The notes under the pieces are model-generated. The model saw only the letters and a program-made list of their open reading frames with translations. It made no database searches and had not been told where the DNA came from. The position numbers were made by a program, and so were the translations under genes. From an uncultured Actinomycetota bacterium (lineage in GTDB: Bacteria; Actinomycetota; Actinomycetes; Propionibacteriales; Nocardioidaceae): a stretch of DNA of 24,000 nucleotides. The DNA is taken from the NCBI GenBank assembly GCA_963721925.1, contig CAVRLH010000002.1, forward strand, positions 14,336 through 38,335. The letters run 5' to 3'. This document shows positions 1-10,287 of the stretch, piece by piece; within the stretch, counting starts at the first letter, position 1, and every line of letters begins with the position of its first letter.

Positions 1-1004
1 GGGAGGACGACACGACGGCTGCGATCCCGGACTCGCGTTGGGAGCTGCTGTTCGACCGAGGGGACTTCGAGTTCATGACGGAGTCGTCGCGCGTGCTGAC
101 GGCGTACGACCGCTACTTCGCGACCGGCCCGTCGCAGACGTCGTCGAGCAGCCCGACCCACCAGTACCCGTGGTACATCGCCCTGGCGATCCTGTTCGTG
201 GAGCGCGGCGAGCAACCGGTGTTCTCCGAGGCCGCGCTGGCGTCCATCGCGTCCACCTGGCACGAGCCGCGACTCTATGGTGCCGCCCTCGCAGCACTCG
301 CCGGAGACCGGCGGGCTCACAGCAGGATCCTCGGACAGGTCCGGACCGAGCTCCCGTCGAGGCTCGACCTGAGCCGTCCCGACGACATCGTCGTCTGCCA
401 GGCGGCCGCGTCCCGCGGTGATCTCGACGACCTGCCGACGACGTACCAGACCTACTCCTACGACCACTTCCGGCTCTCACACGTCGCGGCCCTTGCCGAG
501 GCGGCCGGCGACCGCGGGGTCGTCGATCGCATCAGTCGTGCCACGGACGAGTTCGCGACCAGGAGGCCGGACACGCTGGAGATCAACCAGCTGCGGTCGA
601 CGCTCGCGCGCGCCGACCTCAGCCTCGGCCGGGCTGAGGATCTGCGGGCGGCTCCGACCACCCTGTCCTTCCTGTACGGCGCGATCAGGACGATCGTCAC
701 GCTGCTCGACCGGACCTCGCTCCTCGAGCTGGTCAGCGATCTCGAGCGGCGGTCCGTGTTCTGGCCGCAGGACGTGACCGCGTCCGCGCTCGACTCGACC
801 CTGCGCTCGACGATCACCCCCGCCGACTGCACCGCGCTGATCGAGACGGCCGACCGCTGCGGGTTGATCGTGGACCTGATCGACGCGGTCTCGGCGAGGA
901 CGACGACGCGGCTCTCGCTCCAGCTGGTCTCGGGGATCAGGCAGATCGAGGGGCTCCTGTTCCCCTTCGCCAGACCGCGTGCAGAGCTTCCGAGCATCCA
1001 CTGA
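1..1004 (+). CDS. Hypothetical helical (Leu/Ala/Arg-rich) protein, first visible gene of the protease-tyrosinase cluster; probably 5'-truncated by the window edge
   Basis: ORF track gives 75..1004 (309 aa). The same frame is stop-free from nt 3 to 74 (EDDTTAAIPDSRWELLFDRGDFEF, then M at 75) with GC-rich third positions, so the real start may lie upstream of the window. The stop at 1002-1004 is 24 nt before the ATG of the next gene. I recognise no catalytic or binding motif. Confidence 0.6.
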   Translation, partial: EDDTTAAIPDSRWELLFDRGDFEFMTESSRVLTAYDRYFATGPSQTSSSSPTHQYPWYIALAILFVERGEQPVFSEAALASIASTWHEPRLYGAALAALAGDRRAHSRILGQVRTELPSRLDLSRPDDIVVCQAAASRGDLDDLPTTYQTYSYDHFRLSHVAALAEAAGDRGVVDRISRATDEFATRRPDTLEINQLRSTLARADLSLGRAEDLRAAPTTLSFLYGAIRTIVTLLDRTSLLELVSDLERRSVFWPQDVTASALDSTLRSTITPADCTALIETADRCGLIVDLIDAVSARTTTRLSLQLVSGIRQIEGLLFPFARPRAELPSIH

Positions 1005-1028
1005 ACGGCATCAGACAGGAGGAGACCG

Positions 1029-2864
1029 ATGGACGCCTTGACCCGGCTCCGGGCCGCGAACGCCGCGATCCGAGATCGCGACCGGCCGTTGGCCGACGAG
1101 CTGACCGAGCTCACGGACGGACCCACGCCCGAGGGGCCGGGCGGCGAGATCCAGCTCGAGACGATCGTCCTGCGCACAGGTCGTCCCGTCCTGGCGATCA
1201 AGCAGGACGAGGCCCAGCTCGTCTTCGACGACGCCGACAGCGCCGTGTGGAACTCCCGGCTCCAGGAGGCACGGTCGTACCTCGTGCGTGCCACCAGAGC
1301 GGTCGGGAGGATCGAGGCCGAGGGCCACAGCCTGGCGTGGCTCGGCACTGGGTGGCTCGTGGCTCCCGACACGATCGTGACCAACCGGCACGTGGCTGCC
1401 GAGTTCGGCCGCCGCAGCGGCACCACCTTCGTCTTTCGGCAGTCCCCGGGTGGCGACCTCATGCGTGCCTCGATCGACCTCCTCGAAGAGGTGGACCGCG
1501 AGGACAGCCTGACCTTGGAGCTGGGGCAGATCCTCCACATCGAGGACGCGGACGGTCCGGACATCGCCTTCTTGCGCGTGGAGCAGATCGACGGTTCGTC
1601 ATCGGTGTCGCCGATCGCTCTCGCAGAGGCGCCGCAGCCGGACGACTTCGTGGCCGTGATCGGCTACCCCGCTCGCGACAGCCGGATTCCCGACGTCGAC
1701 CTGATGGATCGGATCTTCGGGAACGTCTACGACAAGAAGCGACTCGCTCCCGGTCAGGTGATCGAGCCGCGTAGCGGCACGCTCACCCACGACTGCTCCA
1801 CCCTCGGTGGGAACTCGGGATCGGTGGTGCTCTCCCTTGCCACCGGTGACGCAGTGGGGCTCCACTTCGCGGGGAGGTTCCTCGAGGCCAACTACGCTGT
1901 CTCGAGCCAGGTGGTCGCGCAGCGTCTGGACGCTGTGCAGAGCAGAAGGGCTTCCCGGCAGCAAGCTCTCGGCGTGCCGGACCCCTTCCGGGCGGGGAGC
2001 GGTGACGGCGAGGTCTTCGTCGAGGCGGTCGCGGAGGACTACCTGGACCGCGAGGGGTACGACGCGTCGTTCCTCGGCGAGGGCCCCGAGGCACCGCTGC
2101 CCGAGGTCACGCAGGGAGTCGACGATGTGATGACCTTCGAGCTCGACGGTCGCGACGAGCAGGTGTTGAAGTACGAGCACTTCTCGGTGCTCATGAGCGC
2201 CAGCCGACGGCTGTGCCGCTACAGCGCCGTCAACATCGACGGCAACCTGTCCAAGAGCTTTGCACGCGTGGGCTGGCGGAGCGATCCCCGGATCCCGCCG
2301 AGCGCCCAGATCCGGGACGAGCCCTACGGCAATCCGCCGCAGTTCTCGCGAGGACACATGACCCGTCGGGAGGACCCGATCTGGGGCTCCGACGAGGCGG
2401 CCGCTCACGGCAACGCCGACTCGATGCACGTCACCAACGCCGTACCGCAGATGCAACCCTTCAATGCCGGCATCTGGCTCGACCTCGAGGACTACGCGCT
2501 CCAGAACGCACGGCGGGACGACATGAGGATCTCGGTGTTCACCGGGCCCTTCCTCGATGACGACGATCCGACGATGTTCGGGGTGAAGATCCCCGTCGAG
2601 TTCTGGAAGGTCATCGCGTTCGTCCACGACGAGACCGGCGCGTTGTGCGCGACCGGCTACACGATGTCGCAGCGAGACTTCCTCAGCGAGGAGGAGTTCG
2701 TCTTCGGAGCACACCGGACCGCGCAGGTGACGATCGACTCGATCGAGGGGCGTGCGGGGCTCTCCTTCGGACCGCTCACCGAGCTCGATCCGTTCGTGCA
2801 GCTGGAGGGGTCCGCCCCGCAGCTGACCGACGTGACGCAGGTCCAGTTCCTTCGCAGGCGCTGA
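1029..2864 (+). CDS. Fusion protein: N-terminal trypsin-fold (Trypsin_2-like) serine protease plus C-terminal DNA/RNA non-specific endonuclease (NUC/Endonuclease_NS, beta-beta-alpha-Me fold)
   Basis: 611-aa ORF with SD AGGAGGAG at 1017-1024, 4 nt before ATG 1029. Protease triad in canonical order: His121 in GTGWLVAPDTIVTNRHVA (codon 1389-1391), Asp178 in DIAFLRV (1560-1562), Ser263 in GGNSGSVV (1815-1817). The nuclease half carries the Serratia-nuclease signature FSRGHMTRREDP (His443, codon 2355-2357) followed by NAVPQMQPFNAGIWLDLE (metal-binding Asn and Glu). No N-terminal signal peptide (MDALTRLRAANAAIRDRDRP). Confidence 0.9.
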   Translation: MDALTRLRAANAAIRDRDRPLADELTELTDGPTPEGPGGEIQLETIVLRTGRPVLAIKQDEAQLVFDDADSAVWNSRLQEARSYLVRATRAVGRIEAEGHSLAWLGTGWLVAPDTIVTNRHVAAEFGRRSGTTFVFRQSPGGDLMRASIDLLEEVDREDSLTLELGQILHIEDADGPDIAFLRVEQIDGSSSVSPIALAEAPQPDDFVAVIGYPARDSRIPDVDLMDRIFGNVYDKKRLAPGQVIEPRSGTLTHDCSTLGGNSGSVVLSLATGDAVGLHFAGRFLEANYAVSSQVVAQRLDAVQSRRASRQQALGVPDPFRAGSGDGEVFVEAVAEDYLDREGYDASFLGEGPEAPLPEVTQGVDDVMTFELDGRDEQVLKYEHFSVLMSASRRLCRYSAVNIDGNLSKSFARVGWRSDPRIPPSAQIRDEPYGNPPQFSRGHMTRREDPIWGSDEAAAHGNADSMHVTNAVPQMQPFNAGIWLDLEDYALQNARRDDMRISVFTGPFLDDDDPTMFGVKIPVEFWKVIAFVHDETGALCATGYTMSQRDFLSEEEFVFGAHRTAQVTIDSIEGRAGLSFGPLTELDPFVQLEGSAPQLTDVTQVQFLRRR

Positions 2865-2978
2865 CCCGGCTGGCGGCCTAGACCATCGGAACCCGGGCCT
2901 TCCGGAGTGCTCGTCGACCGCCGTAGCGTGAGGCAGAGCCTGACGGGTGAGCGGCTCCGGTCCACGCAGGAGGCGACG

Positions 2979-4436
2979 ATGCTGTTGCAGCGGAAGGACA
3001 TCTGGCGGGCCGAGGAGGTCGGCGGGCCGTGGAACCAGGTGGTGCTGGCATATGCCCTGGCGTTCGGTGTGCTCGCGGGTCCACCCGATCCGCTCAAGCC
3101 CGAGTCGTGGACGCTGGAGTACCAGGCTGCGGTCCACGACATGCACCCGCTGCCCCCACCGGACGGCTTCCGTGCCACCTGCCAGCACGACACGTGGTAC
3201 TTCCTGCCATGGCACCGGATGTACCTGCTCCACTTCGAGGCGGTCGTCCGGGGCATCATCGCCGAGCTCGACGACGACCGGATCACGGACGAGACCCGCG
3301 AGACCTGGGCCTTGCCGTACTGGAACTACCAGCCCCCCGAGCATCGGATCCTGCCGAGTGCCTTCCGGCAGGCAGACCTGCCCGACGGCCAGGCCAACCC
3401 ACTGGCGGCGGCAGCGCGCTTCCCCGCGGTGCAGGCGGGGCTCCAACCCCTCAGCGATGACGAGGTCGAGTTCGCCGGATGGTGGGGGGAGACGGTGTTC
3501 ACGCTGCCCGGCACGCCGTCGTTCGGCGGGAGCGACACGCGTGGCAAGCGACACCGGCCCGTGCGGTTCGCCGACGCAGGTGCGCTGGAGATCACCCCGC
3601 ACGGGTCGGTCCACATGTACGTCGGCTGGGACATGCAGGCCTTCCACACTGCCGGCCTGGACCCCGTCTTCTGGCTGCACCACTGCAACCTGGACCGGCT
3701 GTGGGAGGTGTGGTGCGTCGGCGGCGGCGTACGACGACCCAATCCCGGCGCAGGCGGATGGGCGTCCGAGACGTTCGACTTTCGCGACGCGCACGGGGCC
3801 ACCTGGACGCGAACGTCGCGAGAGGTTGAAGACACGACCGCGCTGGGCTACACCTATGAGGACACGTCGGCGCCGGTCGCGCCGGCGTCCCCGACGAGGA
3901 GCCGCACCGTGGAGGTCGAGGGACCGGACGCAGAGACCTGGCGGCGGGAGCTCCCGCCTCGTGCCCTCGGGTCGACGGGCGAGCCGCTCGTCGTCCGGTC
4001 GGAGGCGGCGACGGTGGAGTTCGACCTGACGCCCGACGAGGAGGTGCGCACCCGCTCCGGTCGCCCGGGACCGGCCCGGGTCATCCTGAGGGTCGACAAC
4101 ATCGCGATCTCCGCCGACGACCTCGAACGAGTCCGGGACCGCCAGGCGGTCATCGGGACGTACGCCGTGTACCTGCTGGGCAGCCGGGACGGTGTCGAGG
4201 CCTACGTGGGCAACCTCCCACTGTTCGGCCTGCGAGAGTCGCTCGCGGAGGACGGCCACCACGAGCTGGCGTACTCCTTCGACGCCACCTCGGCGGTCAA
4301 CCTGCTGCGCAACCAGGACGCGTGGACGTGGGACCGCGCGAGCATCACGATCAAGCCGAGCAACCACGAGGCCTATGCGGGTGCCGGCGAGGTCGTGCCG
4401 GTCACGTTCGGCAACGTCGCCCTCTCCTACCAGTAG
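2979..4436 (+). CDS. Tyrosinase / polyphenol-oxidase family type-3 copper protein with ~190-aa C-terminal extension
   Basis: ORF track gives 2907..4436. Preferred start is ATG 2979, preceded by AGGAGG at 2968-2973. CuA site: AVHDMH...CQHDTWYFLPWHRMYLLHFE. PPO-type LPYWNY motif is present. CuB site: PHGSVHMYVGW...DPVFWLHHCNLDRLWEVW. After the copper domain (about nt 3850 onward) there is a further domain ending ...VILRVDNIAISADD...TYAVYLLG...ITIKPSNHEAY...VALSYQ, resembling the C-terminal domains of latent PPO/tyrosinases. No Sec or twin-arginine signal is visible. Confidence 0.9.
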   Translation: MLLQRKDIWRAEEVGGPWNQVVLAYALAFGVLAGPPDPLKPESWTLEYQAAVHDMHPLPPPDGFRATCQHDTWYFLPWHRMYLLHFEAVVRGIIAELDDDRITDETRETWALPYWNYQPPEHRILPSAFRQADLPDGQANPLAAAARFPAVQAGLQPLSDDEVEFAGWWGETVFTLPGTPSFGGSDTRGKRHRPVRFADAGALEITPHGSVHMYVGWDMQAFHTAGLDPVFWLHHCNLDRLWEVWCVGGGVRRPNPGAGGWASETFDFRDAHGATWTRTSREVEDTTALGYTYEDTSAPVAPASPTRSRTVEVEGPDAETWRRELPPRALGSTGEPLVVRSEAATVEFDLTPDEEVRTRSGRPGPARVILRVDNIAISADDLERVRDRQAVIGTYAVYLLGSRDGVEAYVGNLPLFGLRESLAEDGHHELAYSFDATSAVNLLRNQDAWTWDRASITIKPSNHEAYAGAGEVVPVTFGNVALSYQ

Positions 4437-4444
4437 CAGCCGCG

Positions 4445-5212
4445 ATGGCCGTGTCGTCAGCACTACCCGTCGGATCACCCCGCTGGGCGTGGCGCGCACG
4501 GGTGGAACGGCGACCGGAGCTGCCGGTCCTCGGCATCTCCGCGGCCGCCTGGGTGGTGCTGCTGCTCGTGCTGCGGGGCACGCCGACGTCGTCGTCGGGT
4601 CACGACCATGGCACGTCGCACCTCACCACCACCGGCCAGCCGGGGGACGAATGGCTGTCGGGGGCCGGCCGTGGCGCCCTGCTCTGGGTGGTGATGACGG
4701 TGGCCATGATGCTCCCGCTCGCCGTCCCCGGCCTGCGGTACGTCGCGCGGATGGTGCCACGCCGCGGTCGGCTGGCCGCCACGAGCACCTTCGCTTCCGC
4801 GTACGTCGTCGCCTGGCTGCCCGCGGCGGTGCTCGCCGGCGGCGTCCACCCGGGCACGCCGCCCGACTGGCCCGTCGTGGCAGCAGTCTTCCTGCTCGCG
4901 GCCGGCTGGGAGCTGACCCCCATCAAGCGAGCAGCCCTGCTGCGGGGCCACCGGCATCACGTCGTCCGCGCGCAGCAGCCCGCACGGAGACGCACCTGCT
5001 GGTCGTTCGGGCTCCGACGTGGTGGCTGGTGTCTCGTGTCCTGCGGGCCGGCGATGCTGGCACTGATGATCGGTCACCACGCACTCGTGCCTCTCCTCGT
5101 CCTCGCGGTCGGCGCGGTGGTGCAACAGCTCAGCCCCGACGCGCACTGGCGCCGCACCTGGTCGGCGGCCGGGCTCGTCCTGCTCGCCGTAGGTGCCCCA
5201 TGGCTGATCTGA
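4445..5212 (+). CDS. Multi-pass membrane protein, DUF2182-like (predicted metal-binding integral membrane protein)
   Basis: ORF track gives 4322..5212, which overlaps the tyrosinase. ATG 4445, 8 nt after the tyrosinase stop, is the more plausible start. There are 6-7 hydrophobic segments, a His-rich loop (SSGHDHGTSH), a WVVMTVAMMLP motif typical of DUF2182 as I remember it, and GHRHH plus CWSFG...WCLVSCGPAM Cys/His clusters. Family assignment is from memory, not a search. Confidence 0.7.
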   Translation: MAVSSALPVGSPRWAWRARVERRPELPVLGISAAAWVVLLLVLRGTPTSSSGHDHGTSHLTTTGQPGDEWLSGAGRGALLWVVMTVAMMLPLAVPGLRYVARMVPRRGRLAATSTFASAYVVAWLPAAVLAGGVHPGTPPDWPVVAAVFLLAAGWELTPIKRAALLRGHRHHVVRAQQPARRRTCWSFGLRRGGWCLVSCGPAMLALMIGHHALVPLLVLAVGAVVQQLSPDAHWRRTWSAAGLVLLAVGAPWLI

Positions 5213-5225
5213 CGAGGGAGGACGC

Positions 5226-7274
5226 ATGACACCGGACCAGGGCACGTTGTTCGTCAGCGACGCGTTCGTGAGCGTCGACAGCGGCGACGCCCTGGTCGAC
5301 GTGCGCCCGGTCCTCGACAGCCTCGAGCCGACGTACCTCGTCGTCACCGACCGCTCCTCCACCGACGGCGTCTTCGTCTTCGACGTCGAGGCAGTCCGCA
5401 GCCTCCTCGACGAGCTGGCGGACGAGGTCGCCGTCATCGGTTGGACCGGTGCCGATCTCGTCCGTGAGCTGCGCGTCGAGCCGTCGCTGGTCGTCAACCT
5501 GCTGACCGGCCAGACGGTGGACGCGACCGTCCCGGGCAACGAGCTGGAGGACGCGCTCCGGCGGCGCCTGGTCGTGACCGTCGACGATGCCGTCCGCGGC
5601 GTCATCTTCGCAGTGCACCTCGGAGAAGTGCCGTCGCTGCCCATCGACGAGCTGCTCATCCACGCCGCCAGACCGCAGCTCGACCGGGTCGAGGTGCAGG
5701 CCGTCAGCCGGGGCAGCCAGTTCCCCGTCGAGGAGCGGTCCGGGTCGCCACCTCCGCCCTTGCCGGAGGCAGCCGCGGACGGAGACAACGACGAGGCTGT
5801 TGTGAACGGCCTCCAGGTGCTCGTGCCCGCCGAGGTGGCGTACGACGCCGTCGTGCCGCTGCTCGTGCTCCTGACGCGGCCCGGCGGCGACGAGCCGGAC
5901 ATCCGCTTCGCCGCCGAGGTCGGTGACGTCATCTCCGTGGTGGTGTGGCCCCAGGAGGGAGTGGAGGTCGTCGGCTCCGAGACCGCGACGATCGAGGTGT
6001 CGGGGGCCGGCGACGACGAGACGGCGAGGATCGAGCTCAAGATCACGAGCCCGACCAGGGCGTCCCTGATCGTCGAGGGCTTCCGGGACCAGACGTCACT
6101 CGGCAGCGTGCTCGTCGAGCTGCGGGTGGTCCTGGGCGGAGGTCAGCCCGCCGCGACACAGCGCGCCGCAGTCCTTCCGCTCGATCGTGGCCGGGCCCCG
6201 CGGTCCGACCTCGCCGTCCACGTCGTCGAGGGCAAGAGCCCCACCGGTGACGGACGGGGTCTGCGCTTCGTCGCGATCGAGCCTGGCCACAAGCCCGTGG
6301 CCTTCCCGTTCCAGTCCGTCAATGGAGACGCCCAGGCCTATCTGGCCCCGCTCTTCGAGAGCATCAACGCCGCGCTGGACGCACCGGCTGCGGGTCTGCC
6401 GGGACCGACCGCGGCGGCCGACGAGGTCGTCCGGGGCATCGGTCTGACCCTGAGCTCGCAGCTGCTACCAGCGGGGTTCAGGGAGTTCCTGTGGGACAAC
6501 CGCGACAAGATCCGCAGCATCGTCGTCCACAGCGACGAGTCGCTCATCCCGTGGGAGCTGTGCCTGCTGACCCACACCGGCGACGACGGGCGTACCGAGG
6601 AGGTCGGCTTCTTCTGCGAGCTCTTCGAGCTCACCCGGTGGCGGCCTCGCCTGCCGGCCCTGGAAGTGATCACCATGCGCTCGATCGGCGTCATCGCCCC
6701 GGGCGACAGCGGGCTCACGTCCCGGGAAGCCGAGGTGGCGATGCTGACCGGCCTGACGACGCCCGATCGCACCGTCACGACCGTGCCCGCCACCACCGAC
6801 CAGGTGATGATGGCGTTGAAGGACGGGTCCTACGACGTGCTGCACTTCCTCGGGCACGGGGAGCTGCCCGACCCCACTCGCGCGTCGTCGGCGCGGCTGG
6901 TCCTGGCGGGTGCCTCCTACCTGACAGCGGAGTGGATCGGCGGTGCCTCGGCGAACTTCGGCCTGACCAACCCCCTCGTGTTCCTGAACGCCTGTCGGCT
7001 GGGCTCTGCGTCGGCCGGCCTCGTCGGTCCCTCGGGCTTCGCGCGCGTGATGCTCGACGCCGGCTCGGCTGTCTTCATCGGCGCGCACTGGAATGTCGTG
7101 GACGACACGGCCCACCGGTTCGCGACCGCGCTCTACCAGAACCTTTTGAACGGCGAACCCGTCGGTCGCGCTGCCCTGGCGGCGCGCCTGGCCGTCAAGG
7201 AGGTGGGTGATCCGACCTGGCTCGCCTACACGATCTTCGCCAGTCCCAGCGCGCGCGTCGCGTCCACTGCCTGA
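5226..7274 (+). CDS. CHAT-domain (caspase-like cysteine protease) protein with uncharacterised N-terminal ~420 aa
   Basis: 682-aa ORF with GGGAGGA at 5216-5222 before ATG 5226, 13 nt after the preceding stop. The C-terminal CHAT signature is intact: YDVLHFLGHGE (His544, codon 6855-6857) and PLVFLNACRLG (Cys590, codon 6993-6995), then AVFIGAHWNVVDD. The N-terminal part is acidic and beta-rich with no motif I can name. Confidence 0.9.
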   Translation: MTPDQGTLFVSDAFVSVDSGDALVDVRPVLDSLEPTYLVVTDRSSTDGVFVFDVEAVRSLLDELADEVAVIGWTGADLVRELRVEPSLVVNLLTGQTVDATVPGNELEDALRRRLVVTVDDAVRGVIFAVHLGEVPSLPIDELLIHAARPQLDRVEVQAVSRGSQFPVEERSGSPPPPLPEAAADGDNDEAVVNGLQVLVPAEVAYDAVVPLLVLLTRPGGDEPDIRFAAEVGDVISVVVWPQEGVEVVGSETATIEVSGAGDDETARIELKITSPTRASLIVEGFRDQTSLGSVLVELRVVLGGGQPAATQRAAVLPLDRGRAPRSDLAVHVVEGKSPTGDGRGLRFVAIEPGHKPVAFPFQSVNGDAQAYLAPLFESINAALDAPAAGLPGPTAAADEVVRGIGLTLSSQLLPAGFREFLWDNRDKIRSIVVHSDESLIPWELCLLTHTGDDGRTEEVGFFCELFELTRWRPRLPALEVITMRSIGVIAPGDSGLTSREAEVAMLTGLTTPDRTVTTVPATTDQVMMALKDGSYDVLHFLGHGELPDPTRASSARLVLAGASYLTAEWIGGASANFGLTNPLVFLNACRLGSASAGLVGPSGFARVMLDAGSAVFIGAHWNVVDDTAHRFATALYQNLLNGEPVGRAALAARLAVKEVGDPTWLAYTIFASPSARVASTA

Positions 7275-7354
7275 CCAGCACGTAGCTGGAGCGCTGGGGT
7301 GTTGATTGGTGAGTTTCCAGATCCGTGCGGCGGACCCGCCCGCTGTCGGTGCAC

Positions 7355-8098
7355 TCAGCTCCTGCCTCGCTCGGCGGTCGAGGCCGGGTGATCGGTGTCG
7401 CCGAGCTGCTTTCTCGCAACGAACCTGAATCTGTCGCCGCGGAACAGGGAGCGCGTCCACTCCACGGGCCGACCGCTCGCATCCCACGCAGTGCGCTGGA
7501 TCAGCAACAGGGGTAGTCCCACCTCGATGCCCAGCAGGTTGGCGTTGACGGGGTCGGCCGGGGTCGTCTCGACGATGTCTTCGACGGTGTCGAGCTCGAT
7601 GCCGAAGGCCTCGGCCAGCGTCCGGTAGAGCGAGCCGCGGCTGTCGAGCTCCTCAGCCAGGCGGTGCAGCGGGCCCGGGAGGTGGGCGATCTCGACAGCG
7701 ATGGGCTCTTCTGCCTGGGTCCGCAGCCGAGCAACTCGATGCACGGTGGCACCGGGAGCGAGGTGGAGGTGGTGGGCCACCTCCTCGTCGGCCTCCATCA
7801 CGTCGACGCCAAGCACCTTGCTGCCGGGTCGCCACCCGTCCGCGGCCAGGTCCTGGGAGAACGACGTCAATGGTCTGACCTGCATCAACTTGGGCTGAGC
7901 GACGAAAGTGCCGCGACCCTGGGTGCGCTCGAGGCGGCCGTTGACGACAAGCTCTGCGATCGCCTGGCGCACCGTCGTGCGAGAGGTCTCGAGCAGCTCC
8001 GCCAGCTCCCGCTCGGTGGGCAGCGCGGCACCTGTCGGCAGGTCGTCGATGAGCCGCAGGATCTCCCTCTTGACGAGGTAGTACTTCGGGATCTTCAT
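7355..8098 (-). CDS. GntR-family transcriptional regulator, HutC/UTRA subfamily (DasR/NagR-like GlcNAc regulator)
   Basis: 247 aa. N-terminal winged-HTH: LPTERELAELLETSRTTVRQAIAELVVNGRLERTQGRGTFV. C-terminal UTRA-like effector domain. It lies divergent from a GlcNAc PTS/nagB/nagA operon, with dre-like palindromes in the shared intergenic region. Confidence 0.9.
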   Translation of the reverse strand: MKIPKYYLVKREILRLIDDLPTGAALPTERELAELLETSRTTVRQAIAELVVNGRLERTQGRGTFVAQPKLMQVRPLTSFSQDLAADGWRPGSKVLGVDVMEADEEVAHHLHLAPGATVHRVARLRTQAEEPIAVEIAHLPGPLHRLAEELDSRGSLYRTLAEAFGIELDTVEDIVETTPADPVNANLLGIEVGLPLLLIQRTAWDASGRPVEWTRSLFRGDRFRFVARKQLGDTDHPASTAERGRS

Positions 8099-8140
8099 GA
8101 ATCCTCCGCTGCCTGTTCCCTGAATGGCTTGACACGACAG

Positions 8141-8156
8141 ATTGGTCTATGCCAAT
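8141..8156. promoter_or_regulatory. dre-like (DasR-responsive-element-like) operator, site 1
   Basis: ATTGGTCTATGCCAAT matches about 12 of 16 positions of the Streptomyces dre consensus A(G/C)TGGTCTAGACCA(G/C)T. The flanks extend the dyad to AGATTGG...CCAATCT (8139-8158). It lies just downstream of a TTGACA hexamer at 8129-8134. Confidence 0.65.
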
Positions 8157-8161
8157 CTGCA

Positions 8162-8177
8162 ATTGGTCTACACCAAT
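8162..8177. promoter_or_regulatory. dre-like operator, site 2
   Basis: ATTGGTCTACACCAAT matches about 13 of 16 positions of the dre consensus, with perfectly symmetric ATTGG/CCAAT arms. It is offset exactly 21 bp from site 1 (two helical turns) and ends 23 nt upstream of the PTS start codon. Confidence 0.7.
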
Positions 8178-8199
8178 CTATCACCAGCCGGAGGACCCG

Positions 8200-10287
8200 A
8201 TGACAACCACCGCCCCCGCGGACGCCGAGACGAAGCCACGTGGCTTGAGGATCCCCGGATTCGCTCAGCTCCAACGCCTCGGCAAGAGCCTGATGCTCCC
8301 CATTGCCCTGCTGCCCGCGGCCGGCATCCTGCTCCGTCTCGGACAGGACGACATGCTCGGCCAGTACAACCCGCCTGTCATCGGTCCCTTCTTCGACGCG
8401 ATGAGTGCAGCCGGCGGCGCGATCTTCGCGAACCTGCCGCTGCTGTTCGCTGTCGGCGTGGCCATCGGGTTCGCCCGCAAGGCTGACGGCTCGACGGCCC
8501 TCTCGGCAGTGGCCGGATACCTGGTCATCGCCGAGGTGTTCAAGGCGATGTCGCCCATCGTCCTCGCCGGCGAGACCACCCCGGCCGGCGACCAGGCGAT
8601 GATCAACTACAGCGTCTTCGCGGGCATCATCATCGGCGTCGTGACCGCGTGGCTGTTCGACCGCTATCACACCATCCAGCTGCCGCCCTACCTCGGCTTC
8701 TTCGGTGGCCGCAGGTTCGTGCCCATCGTGGTCTCGCTGGCGGCACTGTTCATCGGTTTCGGCATGAGCTACCTCTACCCGCTCTTCGACATGGGTCTCA
8801 CGGGGATCGCCCAGTTCATCGGCGGATCAGGTGCGATCGGCGCGTTCGTCTATGGCTTCGTCAACCGGATGCTCATCCCGCTCGGTCTGCACCACATCGT
8901 CAACACCTACATCTGGTTCCTCTATGGCGACTTCACCGTCAACGGCACGTCCTACACCGGTGAGCTGACCCGTTTCGCCAATGGCGACCCCGAGGCCGGT
9001 CGCTTGACTGCCGGCTTCTACCCGATCCTGATGTTCGGCCTGCCCGCCGCTGCCCTCGCGATGATTCATTCAGCCCGCGCGAACCAGAAGAAGCTGGCCA
9101 TCGGCATCCTCTCCGCCGCCGGTCTGACTGCCTTCCTGACCGGCGTCACCGAGCCGCTCGAGTTTGCGTTCATGTTCGTCGCCTTCCCCCTCTATGTGAT
9201 CCACGCGGTGCTGACCGGACTGTCCTTGGCGATCGCGTACTCGCTCGACATCCACCTCGGCTTCTCGTTCTCGGCCGGCCTGATCGACCTGCTTCTCTAT
9301 GGCACGGCTCCGGCCGCGAAGAACATCCCACTGCTGGTCCTGATGGGTGTGGTGTTCTTCGTCCTGTACTACGTGCTGTTCCGCTTTGCGATCACCCGCT
9401 GGAACCTGCTCACCCCGGGCCGCGACCCCGAGGCGGACGGCGCGGATGATGCGACGGACGGCACCGATCACCCCGCCGGCGCGGGTGGAGCGACTGCGCG
9501 GGCCTACCAACTGATCGCCGCTTTCGGCGGCGCGGACAACCTCCAGGCCGTTGATGCCTGCATCACCAGGCTTCGGATCGAGGTGGCTGACAAGGCCGGG
9601 GTGGACGCCGCGGCACTGCGAGCGCTGGGCGCCGCCGGTGTGATCGAGGTCGGCAACAACGTGCAGGCCGTCTTCGGCACCCAGGCAGACGGGCTCAAGG
9701 ACGAGATCCGAGCGGCGCTCGCGCAGGGATCGGCGCCGGCTGCTGCGTCCGCACCCGAGGATGTGCCGACGCCCGCGGCAGCAGTCCCGGCCACCCCCAC
9801 GGCGACCGGTCGCCTGACAGTGCTGTCGCCCCTCGGCGGCACCCTGGTGCCGCTGAGCGAGGTCCCGGACGCGACGTTCGCGAAGGGGATCGTCGGGCAC
9901 GGTCTGGCCATCGATCCGCCGCGGGAGGTCGTTGACGTGGTGGCGCCGGCTACGGGCAAGATCCTCAAGCTGTGGCCCCACGCCTTCGCTCTCCAGACCA
10001 CGGACGGAGTGGGTGTCCTGGTGCACCTTGGCATCGACACGGTGCAGCTCAAGGGTGAAGGATTCAGCGCTTATGCTGCCGAGGGTGACGAGGTCGAGAT
10101 CGGTCAGCCGATCCTGCGTTACGACGTGCCCGCTGTCGAGGCCGCCGGACGCAATCCCGTCGTGCCGGTGATCATCCTCGACCGCAAGGCCGACACCGTC
10201 GTCCTGCGAGACCTGGCTGCCGGTGGCGATGTGAAGCCCCTCGAGCTGCTCCTCACGGTCGCTGCGAAGTCCACGGTCGTGAGCTGA
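8200..10287 (+). CDS. nagE: PTS sugar transporter, fused EIIC-EIIB-EIIA (glucose/N-acetylglucosamine family), probably GlcNAc-specific
   Basis: ORF track starts at 8149, inside operator site 1. ATG 8200 with GGAGGA at 8190-8195 is preferred. EIIC membrane domain: LGKSLMLPIALLPAAGILLRLG and onward. EIIB phospho-Cys motif: VDACITRLRIEV. EIIA-Glc His motifs: WPHAFALQT and VLVHLGIDTVQLKG. Substrate is inferred from the adjacent nagB/nagA and the dre sites. Confidence 0.88.
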   Translation: MTTTAPADAETKPRGLRIPGFAQLQRLGKSLMLPIALLPAAGILLRLGQDDMLGQYNPPVIGPFFDAMSAAGGAIFANLPLLFAVGVAIGFARKADGSTALSAVAGYLVIAEVFKAMSPIVLAGETTPAGDQAMINYSVFAGIIIGVVTAWLFDRYHTIQLPPYLGFFGGRRFVPIVVSLAALFIGFGMSYLYPLFDMGLTGIAQFIGGSGAIGAFVYGFVNRMLIPLGLHHIVNTYIWFLYGDFTVNGTSYTGELTRFANGDPEAGRLTAGFYPILMFGLPAAALAMIHSARANQKKLAIGILSAAGLTAFLTGVTEPLEFAFMFVAFPLYVIHAVLTGLSLAIAYSLDIHLGFSFSAGLIDLLLYGTAPAAKNIPLLVLMGVVFFVLYYVLFRFAITRWNLLTPGRDPEADGADDATDGTDHPAGAGGATARAYQLIAAFGGADNLQAVDACITRLRIEVADKAGVDAAALRALGAAGVIEVGNNVQAVFGTQADGLKDEIRAALAQGSAPAAASAPEDVPTPAAAVPATPTATGRLTVLSPLGGTLVPLSEVPDATFAKGIVGHGLAIDPPREVVDVVAPATGKILKLWPHAFALQTTDGVGVLVHLGIDTVQLKGEGFSAYAAEGDEVEIGQPILRYDVPAVEAAGRNPVVPVIILDRKADTVVLRDLAAGGDVKPLELLLTVAAKSTVVS

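Follow-up and report, generated by a model that had tools for sequence, protein, structure and literature searches.

The 24,000-nucleotide (nt) stretch of DNA that was analysed here, referred to as the window, comes from contig CAVRLH010000002.1 of an uncultured actinobacterium of the Nocardioidaceae. It carries at 2979-7274 three closely spaced genes of the forward strand, which encode a tyrosinase-family oxidase, a membrane protein of the PpoB2 family and a protease with a CHAT domain. The stretch is GC-rich (GC 0.64-0.73), and its nearest relatives are metagenome-assembled genomes of Arachnia sp. (74% protein identity). Genes were assigned by combining six-frame open reading frames (ORFs) with Pfam scans of the encoded proteins (Table 1). 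An original prediction had drawn attention to the first two genes as a cytoplasmic tyrosinase with a lid-like C-terminal domain, followed by a membrane protein standing in for a MelC1-type caddie.

The start of the tyrosinase gene is backed by an AGGAGG Shine-Dalgarno sequence. The last base of its stop codon is 4436 and the following gene starts with an ATG at 4445, which leaves the 8-nt gap reported originally; the gap between the PpoB2 and CHAT genes, which holds a second Shine-Dalgarno sequence, is 13 nt long. A scan for sigma-70 promoters returned zero promoter-like sites, and a terminator scan returned three terminator-like sites, none of them within 2979-7274. It is probable, at roughly 80%, that these genes form a single operon devoted to a cytoplasmic dicopper phenol oxidase, its synthesis and its control: the first gene would contribute a pro-enzyme, the second the copper supply and the third a CHAT protease.

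The oxidase and its C-terminal domain

The product of the first gene matches the Pfam Tyrosinase model PF00264 with 104.7 bits, far above the cut-off of 22.6. Around 2000 proteins match when this tyrosinase is used as a query. Among the best 120, nearly all combine a tyrosinase domain with DUF7868, and the few that bear an organism name belong almost exclusively to Actinomycetota. In an alignment of 60 sequences of this family, the three CuA histidines (H53, H70 and H79) and the three CuB histidines (H208, H212 and H235) are invariant, so that the complete dicopper site described originally is borne out across the family. H234 is likewise invariant alongside the CuB ligands, as is C68, which gives CuA a C68-x-H70 motif of the thioether type. 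The copper ligands correspond to His43/78/87/211/215/238 of HcTyr1, the tyrosinase of Hahella sp. CCB MM4 (PDB 8B74), and C68 has its counterpart in Cys76. Position 209, directly behind H208 of CuB, is a Gly, whereas many tyrosinases, HcTyr1 included, carry an Asn there; monophenolase activity is thus not assured.

A search for export signals found neither a Tat nor a Sec signal in the oxidase, which agrees with the lack of a Tat motif claimed before. The N-terminal QRKDIW is an instance of a conserved structural motif, R(R/K)D(I/V), that aligns to hemocyanin units too, and the sole mildly hydrophobic stretch of the protein (residues 21-39) is modelled with confidence as a helix belonging to the catalytic domain.

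The AlphaFold (AF2) model of the oxidase has a mean predicted local distance difference test (pLDDT) score of 91.3 and a predicted template modelling (pTM) score of 0.92, and is poorly ordered only in the linker, around residues 301-320, where pLDDT falls to 49-61 and drops below 50 at residues 305-311. The best PDB matches in Foldseek, all covering both domains, were 8B74 (HcTyr1), 7XIO (Ralstonia TYR), 6ELS, 6HQI and 4Z11. HcTyr1 is the best PDB match both by sequence and by fold: Foldseek gave E 9e-28 and template modelling (TM) scores of 0.69/0.77, with 26% identity over the structural alignment, and the family profile aligned to it end to end (residues 6-470, E 9e-106).

Beyond the catalytic domain, residues 330-465 match DUF7868 (PF25271) with 40.6 bits against a cut-off of 25. 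Together with the low-confidence linker, the additional C-terminal part amounts to about 185-190 amino acids (aa), in keeping with the extra domain of ~190 aa that had been noticed. The linker is basic throughout the family and often reads PRRRRR; residues about 299-325 are the likely site of lid release. Within the lid, G411, F416 and G417 are invariant in the 60-sequence alignment. Pairwise alignment sets Phe397 of 8B74 (GLFGLE) opposite Phe416 of our protein (PLFGLRE), and some relatives of the tyrosinase match the plant domains PPO1_DWL and PPO1_KFDV. In HcTyr1, Phe397 of the LID domain protrudes toward the active site, and loss of the lid raises activity about 10-fold (PMC11609597; PDB 8B74). 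The two proteins have in common a tyrosinase domain joined to a DUF7868-type lid, a cytoplasmic-type N-terminus, the six copper histidines, the Cys-x-His motif and a candidate placeholder Phe, which in HcTyr1 lies in an L-F-G-L-E motif; they differ at the position behind H208, as said above, and in their overall sequence. Homology to the solved and assayed HcTyr1 therefore supports reading the C-terminal domain as a lid and the whole protein as a latent pro-tyrosinase. The activity-limiting role proposed for it in the original prediction gains weight from this full-length homology, from the correspondence of the two Phe residues and from the activation of HcTyr1. By the same homology the oxidase would be latent, and Phe416 is the residue predicted to cover the CuA/CuB site in the manner of a placeholder.

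Two points weigh against this assignment. The contact between Phe416 and the copper site rests on the alignment to 8B74. Moreover, the lid of a second Hahella enzyme, HcTyr2, is needed for its stability and activity (PMC11609597), which means that lids are not always purely inhibitory.

Latency of this kind has counterparts in eukaryotes, in which proteolysis activates latent plant and fungal polyphenol oxidases (PPOs) as well as insect prophenoloxidase. Apple MdPPO1 (6ELS), the tomato enzyme (6HQI), aurone synthase (4Z11) and Aspergillus oryzae MelB (3W6W) all have a C-terminal shield and a protease-sensitive linker, and the latent PPOs of Coreopsis, apple and tomato are full-length structural matches of our oxidase. 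The plant, fungal and insect enzymes differ from the protein studied here in their eukaryotic origin and in being secreted or directed to plastids; the genes of the proteases that activate them do not adjoin their own.

The lid also occurs as a protein of its own. At two other loci, L081 (7302-7802) and L090 (7073-7564), a stand-alone DUF7868 protein of 163-166 aa is encoded directly after PpoB2, and the tyrosinases of both loci already own a lid. A Tyr replaces the Phe at the placeholder position of these lid-only proteins (LYGL), which calls to mind Tyr98 in the Streptomyces caddie.

PpoB2 and its pairing with the tyrosinase

The product of the second gene matches PF09948 over profile positions 2-185 of 188, with 74.7 bits against a cut-off of 28.7 (E 1.2e-20). 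The assignment to DUF2182 made originally thus passed a hidden Markov model search; the family, once DUF2182, now carries the Pfam name "PpoB2, copper chaperone". Hydropathy indicates about six membrane segments, and the two histidine clusters that had been noticed lie at residues 52-59 (GHDHGTSH) and 168-172 (GHRHH). The description of a His/Cys-rich multi-pass protein therefore stands, except that its fifth transmembrane segment (TM5) is not rich in C-x-C: it holds C196-x3-C200 (WCLVSC) together with C185, and C196 alone of these is invariant.

Conservation was judged on seven orthologues, each taken from an independent locus. Residues that never vary among them include M84, M88 and M89 in TM2, C196, H212, W36 and W81; the loop past TM1 keeps its His-rich character but varies in sequence. 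The Met, Cys and His of this invariant set that lie within the membrane are candidates for a Cu(I) path. By the positive-inside rule one might speculate that two Arg-rich loops, residues 98-115 and the GHRHH-bearing 161-192, lie in the cytoplasm together with the N-terminus and that the GHDHGTSH loop faces outside. One position speaks against a fully conventional PpoB2: Gly168 (4946-4948; LLRGHRHH) stands where 5/6 orthologues have a Cys (RCHR). Two additional His follow this Gly, and the whole may possibly be a compensating change of ligands.

The family takes its name from a protein of Marinomonas mediterranea. According to a review of that work (PMC2855505), PpoB2 is encoded by the second gene of a tyrosinase operon and hands copper specifically to the tyrosinase PpoB1, but does not supply the laccase PpoA; no COG5486 protein had been given a role before it, and PpoB1 is cited as a tyrosinase activated by sodium dodecyl sulfate. 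The arrangement is the same at our locus, with a tyrosinase gene followed by a COG5486/PF09948 membrane protein in one operon and without a MelC1 caddie, and the activation of PpoB1, i.e. its latency, can be likened to the lid-bearing oxidase at 2979-4436. The likeness is drawn through the Pfam model named after PpoB2 and spans a gammaproteobacterium and a high-GC actinobacterium; another difference is that no CHAT gene has been reported for the Marinomonas operon, unlike 2979-7274. Nor is a chaperone or protease partner discussed in the HcTyr1 paper, in which the word 'chaperone' is absent (PMC11609597). From the published role of PpoB2 we infer by homology that the protein at 4445-5212 would deliver copper to the oxidase, as the original prediction had proposed for it.

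Copper delivery is organised differently in Streptomyces. There, MelC1 is a small soluble caddie that is exported by the Tat pathway and whose gene lies upstream, and MelC2 is secreted. That system is likewise a two-gene operon in which a partner loads copper, and MelC1 also shields the active site by means of an aromatic placeholder. At our locus the two functions would be divided, since the covering would fall to a fused C-terminal lid and copper delivery to a downstream membrane protein. None of the six proteins scanned at 75-8098 matched a MelC1 family, and the NCBIfam MelC2 equivalog model scored 47.5 bits on the oxidase, far below its cut-off of 450.

Instead of being a specific metallochaperone, PpoB2 might simply make more copper available in the cytoplasm, as an importer or permease for copper in general or as a copper-tolerance protein. 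Its polytopic, transporter-like build with intramembrane Met, Cys and His would suit such a role, but the M. mediterranea protein is reported to serve PpoB1 and not the other copper oxidase, PpoA (PMC2855505), and the near-obligate adjacency described below points to a dedicated partner. We regard this alternative as unlikely.

To see how general the pairing is, further loci were considered. PpoB2 lies directly 3' of the tyrosinase gene in 9/9 further independent assembled loci (L002, L003, L005, L007-L010, L094 and L095). A metagenome scan with the family alignment yielded 80 loci at 29-44% identity, which were analysed by local hmmsearch with models built from our own alignments; 61 of them extend for 300 nt or more past the tyrosinase ORF and were counted. 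In 58 of these 61, PpoB2 is the next gene on the same strand. Adjacency of the two genes is nearly universal for this tyrosinase family of roughly 2000 members, so that the possibility, raised with the original prediction, of an arrangement unique to this genome falls away. The tyrosinase-PpoB2 pair and the lid mechanism have already been published, and our locus is an uncharacterised actinobacterial example of both. The pair that had been flagged consequently adds little by itself, because the PpoB2 partner and the HcTyr1 lid are both on record. What is new is the frequency of the pairing (58/61), close to obligatory, which supports co-expression of PpoB2 as the default for recombinant production of these enzymes.

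The CHAT gene and the position after PpoB2

The third gene encodes a protein that matches PF12770 with 67.7 bits (cut-off 24) in its C-terminal part. Its HFxGHG and NACR motifs (H540/H544 and C590) are invariant, and the His/Cys dyad is intact. No signal peptide or transmembrane segment was found in the protein, and residues 1-491 gave zero matches in Pfam. The fold of its low-confidence AF2 model resembles separase, the SAVED-CHAT protein 8TL0 and the Craspase 7ZOQ, with an Ig/MG-like beta-sandwich in the middle of the protein.

Close homologues of this CHAT protein are rare, as seven were found among 5.8 billion clustered proteins, and wherever the context is visible (5226-7274, L002, L003/L004, L010, L094, L095 and L096) they follow PpoB2; in L096 a C-terminal fragment of PpoB2 lies upstream. 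The order tyrosinase-PpoB2-CHAT is found in at least six contexts whose flanks differ each time, with gaps of 13-37 nt between PpoB2 and CHAT. Identities to the proteins of 2979-7274, given for the tyrosinase, PpoB2 and CHAT in turn, are 74, 60 and 56% in L002, 74, 61 and 55% in L003, 71, 61 and 60% in L010, 64, 54 and 49% in L094 and 45, 43 and 31% in L095. The three proteins thus co-diverge relative to our cassette. A more distant CHAT protein (27% identity) has no tyrosinase linkage. In the literature searched, no paper couples 'CHAT domain' with tyrosinase and no counterpart of an operon-encoded CHAT activator is described.

These observations are best brought together as follows. The first gene would encode a pro-enzyme composed of a tyrosinase domain, a flexible basic linker and a beta-sandwich lid, and Phe416 of the lid, placed over CuA/CuB, would leave the enzyme latent or weakly active. 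PpoB2 would feed copper to the apo-enzyme and so fill the role of the Tat-exported MelC1 caddie of Streptomyces. In this clade, CHAT would then cut the linker or the lid, and the oxidase would be switched on. On the strength of synteny, CHAT is a plausible oxidase-unlocking protease. The more specific proposal, that its N-terminus of roughly 490 aa is sensor-like and that it cuts the linker on a signal, in an operon-encoded cascade like that of prophenoloxidase and with an M4 peptidase as its equivalent elsewhere, is tentative and should be read as a possibility of rather less than even odds. Both the target of CHAT and the natural substrate of the oxidase are matters of speculation.

The position after PpoB2 is occupied by a protease in other lineages too. 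A thermolysin-like M4 peptidase is encoded directly after PpoB2 in two distant metagenomic loci, L025 (7369-11014) and L086 (7438-9228); in L025 the M4 gene is followed on the same strand by a 259-aa unknown protein and then by a short CHAT protein of 382 aa. Elsewhere the third gene encodes an animal haem peroxidase, a LodA-like oxidase, a lipase, TPR proteins or a GGDEF protein. As a side observation, animal-type haem peroxidases follow the tyrosinase-PpoB2 pair in L051 (6447-8276), L053 (5036-6865) and L069 (2456-4009), and a LodA-like protein, of the L-lysine epsilon-oxidase family, does so in L089 (3042-6155), which suggests that some lineages have multi-oxidase clusters.

Several findings count against a role of CHAT in unlocking the oxidase. 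Most members of the family have no protease gene adjoining PpoB2, the AF2 model of CHAT is weak (pLDDT 64.5), and HcTyr1 sheds its lid slowly without added protease (PMC11609597), from which it follows that such an enzyme can in principle do without a protease of its own. A motif specific to the linkers of this clade, [DE]-x-W-R, resembles the ExxR site of separase and was weighed as the place where CHAT cuts; this idea was set aside as unsupported, as the motif is missing in the CHAT-linked tyrosinase of L095.

CHAT could also be a bystander that cuts something unrelated. In that case the tyrosinase and PpoB2 would make up the whole working unit, and the lid would be lost by autoprocessing or to general proteases, or be kept. 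The slow self-processing of HcTyr1 fits this explanation, as does the result that this CHAT lies directly after PpoB2 in 0/80 of the metagenome loci, which hold more distant family members; in L095, furthermore, the CHAT gene is in two ORFs and without the segment of the catalytic Cys. Yet the three-gene order recurs between unrelated flanks with short gaps and is kept down to 45% tyrosinase identity, the CHAT subfamily is not found elsewhere, and proteases have come to occupy the same position independently, as the M4 genes of L025 and L086 indicate. We consider a chance neighbourhood possible, if somewhat doubtful. As regards L095 itself, its CHAT is split into a 578-aa ORF (2832-4568) and an 85-aa ORF (4700-4957), which is the mark either of a pseudogene or of an assembly error.

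A different explanation would make CHAT the sensor or executor of a stress or conflict response resembling abortive infection, with the tyrosinase as the effector, acting through toxic quinones and cross-linking, and the whole cassette as a defence or cell-death system. Insect melanisation by prophenoloxidase, with its quinones and cross-linking, offers a parallel. Immune systems, CRISPR type III-E/III-B among them, make use of CHAT proteases, and the fold matches to 8TL0 and 7ZOQ belong here; the contexts of the cassette are variable, as with mobile islands, and CHAT is evolving faster than the tyrosinase and PpoB2. The cassette also adjoins a gene for a trypsin/Endonuclease_NS fusion, the protease part of which matches a 'nacht' accessory model of PADLOC (E 2.7e-16). 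That gene, however, is missing from all related cassettes. The tyrosinase and PpoB2 have no match in PADLOC v2, where CHAT gave only a weak match to BovA (E 8e-5), the Pfam search of the N-terminus of CHAT found no domain recognisable as a sensor, be it NTPase, SAVED, TPR or another, and the tyrosinase-PpoB2 core is a widespread operon of the housekeeping type. A defence function is therefore quite improbable in our opinion.

Returning to CHAT as an activator of the oxidase, the 'self-contained' pair of the original prediction needs amending, because the CHAT gene, 13 nt downstream of PpoB2, belongs to the same conserved cassette; the two-gene core itself is conserved. The existence of a narrow CHAT subfamily that is found only after tyrosinase-PpoB2, with M4 in the same position elsewhere, is new as well, and this linkage is the sole lead of the locus worth an experiment. 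If it is true that CHAT and M4 remove the lid, this would answer how latent bacterial tyrosinases are activated in vivo and would assign a defined substrate to a bacterial CHAT protease that is not part of a CRISPR system.

Flanking genes

The features of the locus are compiled in Table 1.

Table 1. Genes, domains and sites at and around the tyrosinase-PpoB2-CHAT cassette; positions are those of the window.
Feature	Position	Strand	Remarks
Gene without assigned family	75-1004	+	309 aa; without Pfam, NCBIfam or PDB match
Trypsin_2 + Endonuclease_NS fusion	1029-2864	+	611 aa; Pfam
Shine-Dalgarno AGGAGG	2968-2973	+	5 nt ahead of the tyrosinase ATG (2979); read off the sequence
Tyrosinase-family type-3 copper oxidase, HcTyr1-type, putatively latent	2979-4436	+	485 aa; PF00264 + PF25271
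Catalytic dicopper domain	2979-3872	+	residues 1 to about 298
CuA H53	3135-3137	+	invariant in the 60-sequence alignment
CuA H70	3186-3188	+	invariant in the 60-sequence alignment
CuA H79	3213-3215	+	invariant in the 60-sequence alignment
CuB H208	3600-3602	+	invariant in the 60-sequence alignment
CuB H212	3612-3614	+	invariant in the 60-sequence alignment
CuB H235	3681-3683	+	invariant in the 60-sequence alignment
Flexible linker	3873-3953	+	residues about 299-325; PTRSRT + E319-T-W-R322-R
Putative C-terminal lid (DUF7868, beta-sandwich)	3954-4436	+	PF25271 match
Candidate placeholder Phe416	4224-4226	+	in invariant (L/F)-F-G motif
PpoB2-family membrane protein, putative copper delivery (PF09948, ex-DUF2182/COG5486)	4445-5212	+	255 aa; Pfam
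Shine-Dalgarno GAGGGAGGA	5214-5222	+	within the 13-nt gap preceding the CHAT gene; read off the sequence
Cytosolic CHAT (separase/caspase-like) protease	5226-7274	+	682 aa; PF12770 C-terminal
CHAT catalytic domain	about 6711-7205		
CHAT H544	6855-6857		
CHAT C590	6993-6995		
GntR/UTRA regulator	7355-8098	-	convergent with the CHAT gene, divergent from the PTS permease
Phosphotransferase system (PTS) permease	8149-10287		712 aa

Upstream of the cassette, the genes at 75-1004 and 1029-2864 are spaced 24 nt apart, and this pair is missing beside related tyrosinase cassettes. They may make up a toxin or defence module of two genes, separate from the cassette. The trypsin/Endonuclease_NS gene was considered as a part of the tyrosinase system and rejected, given that every related cassette examined is without it.

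A small protein family of 123 aa, without a Pfam match, adjoins the cassette at two other loci, on the upstream side in L094 (608-979) and on the downstream side in L095 (4994-5365). The two proteins are 26% identical (pairwise E 3e-13), and the 24,000-nt stretch holds no homologue of them.

Downstream of CHAT, the GntR gene was likewise considered, as a regulator of the operon, and rejected on account of its orientation relative to the CHAT and PTS genes (Table 1). Together with the PTS permease it resembles an ordinary sugar-uptake unit (7355-10287), and it is unlikely to regulate the oxidase operon.

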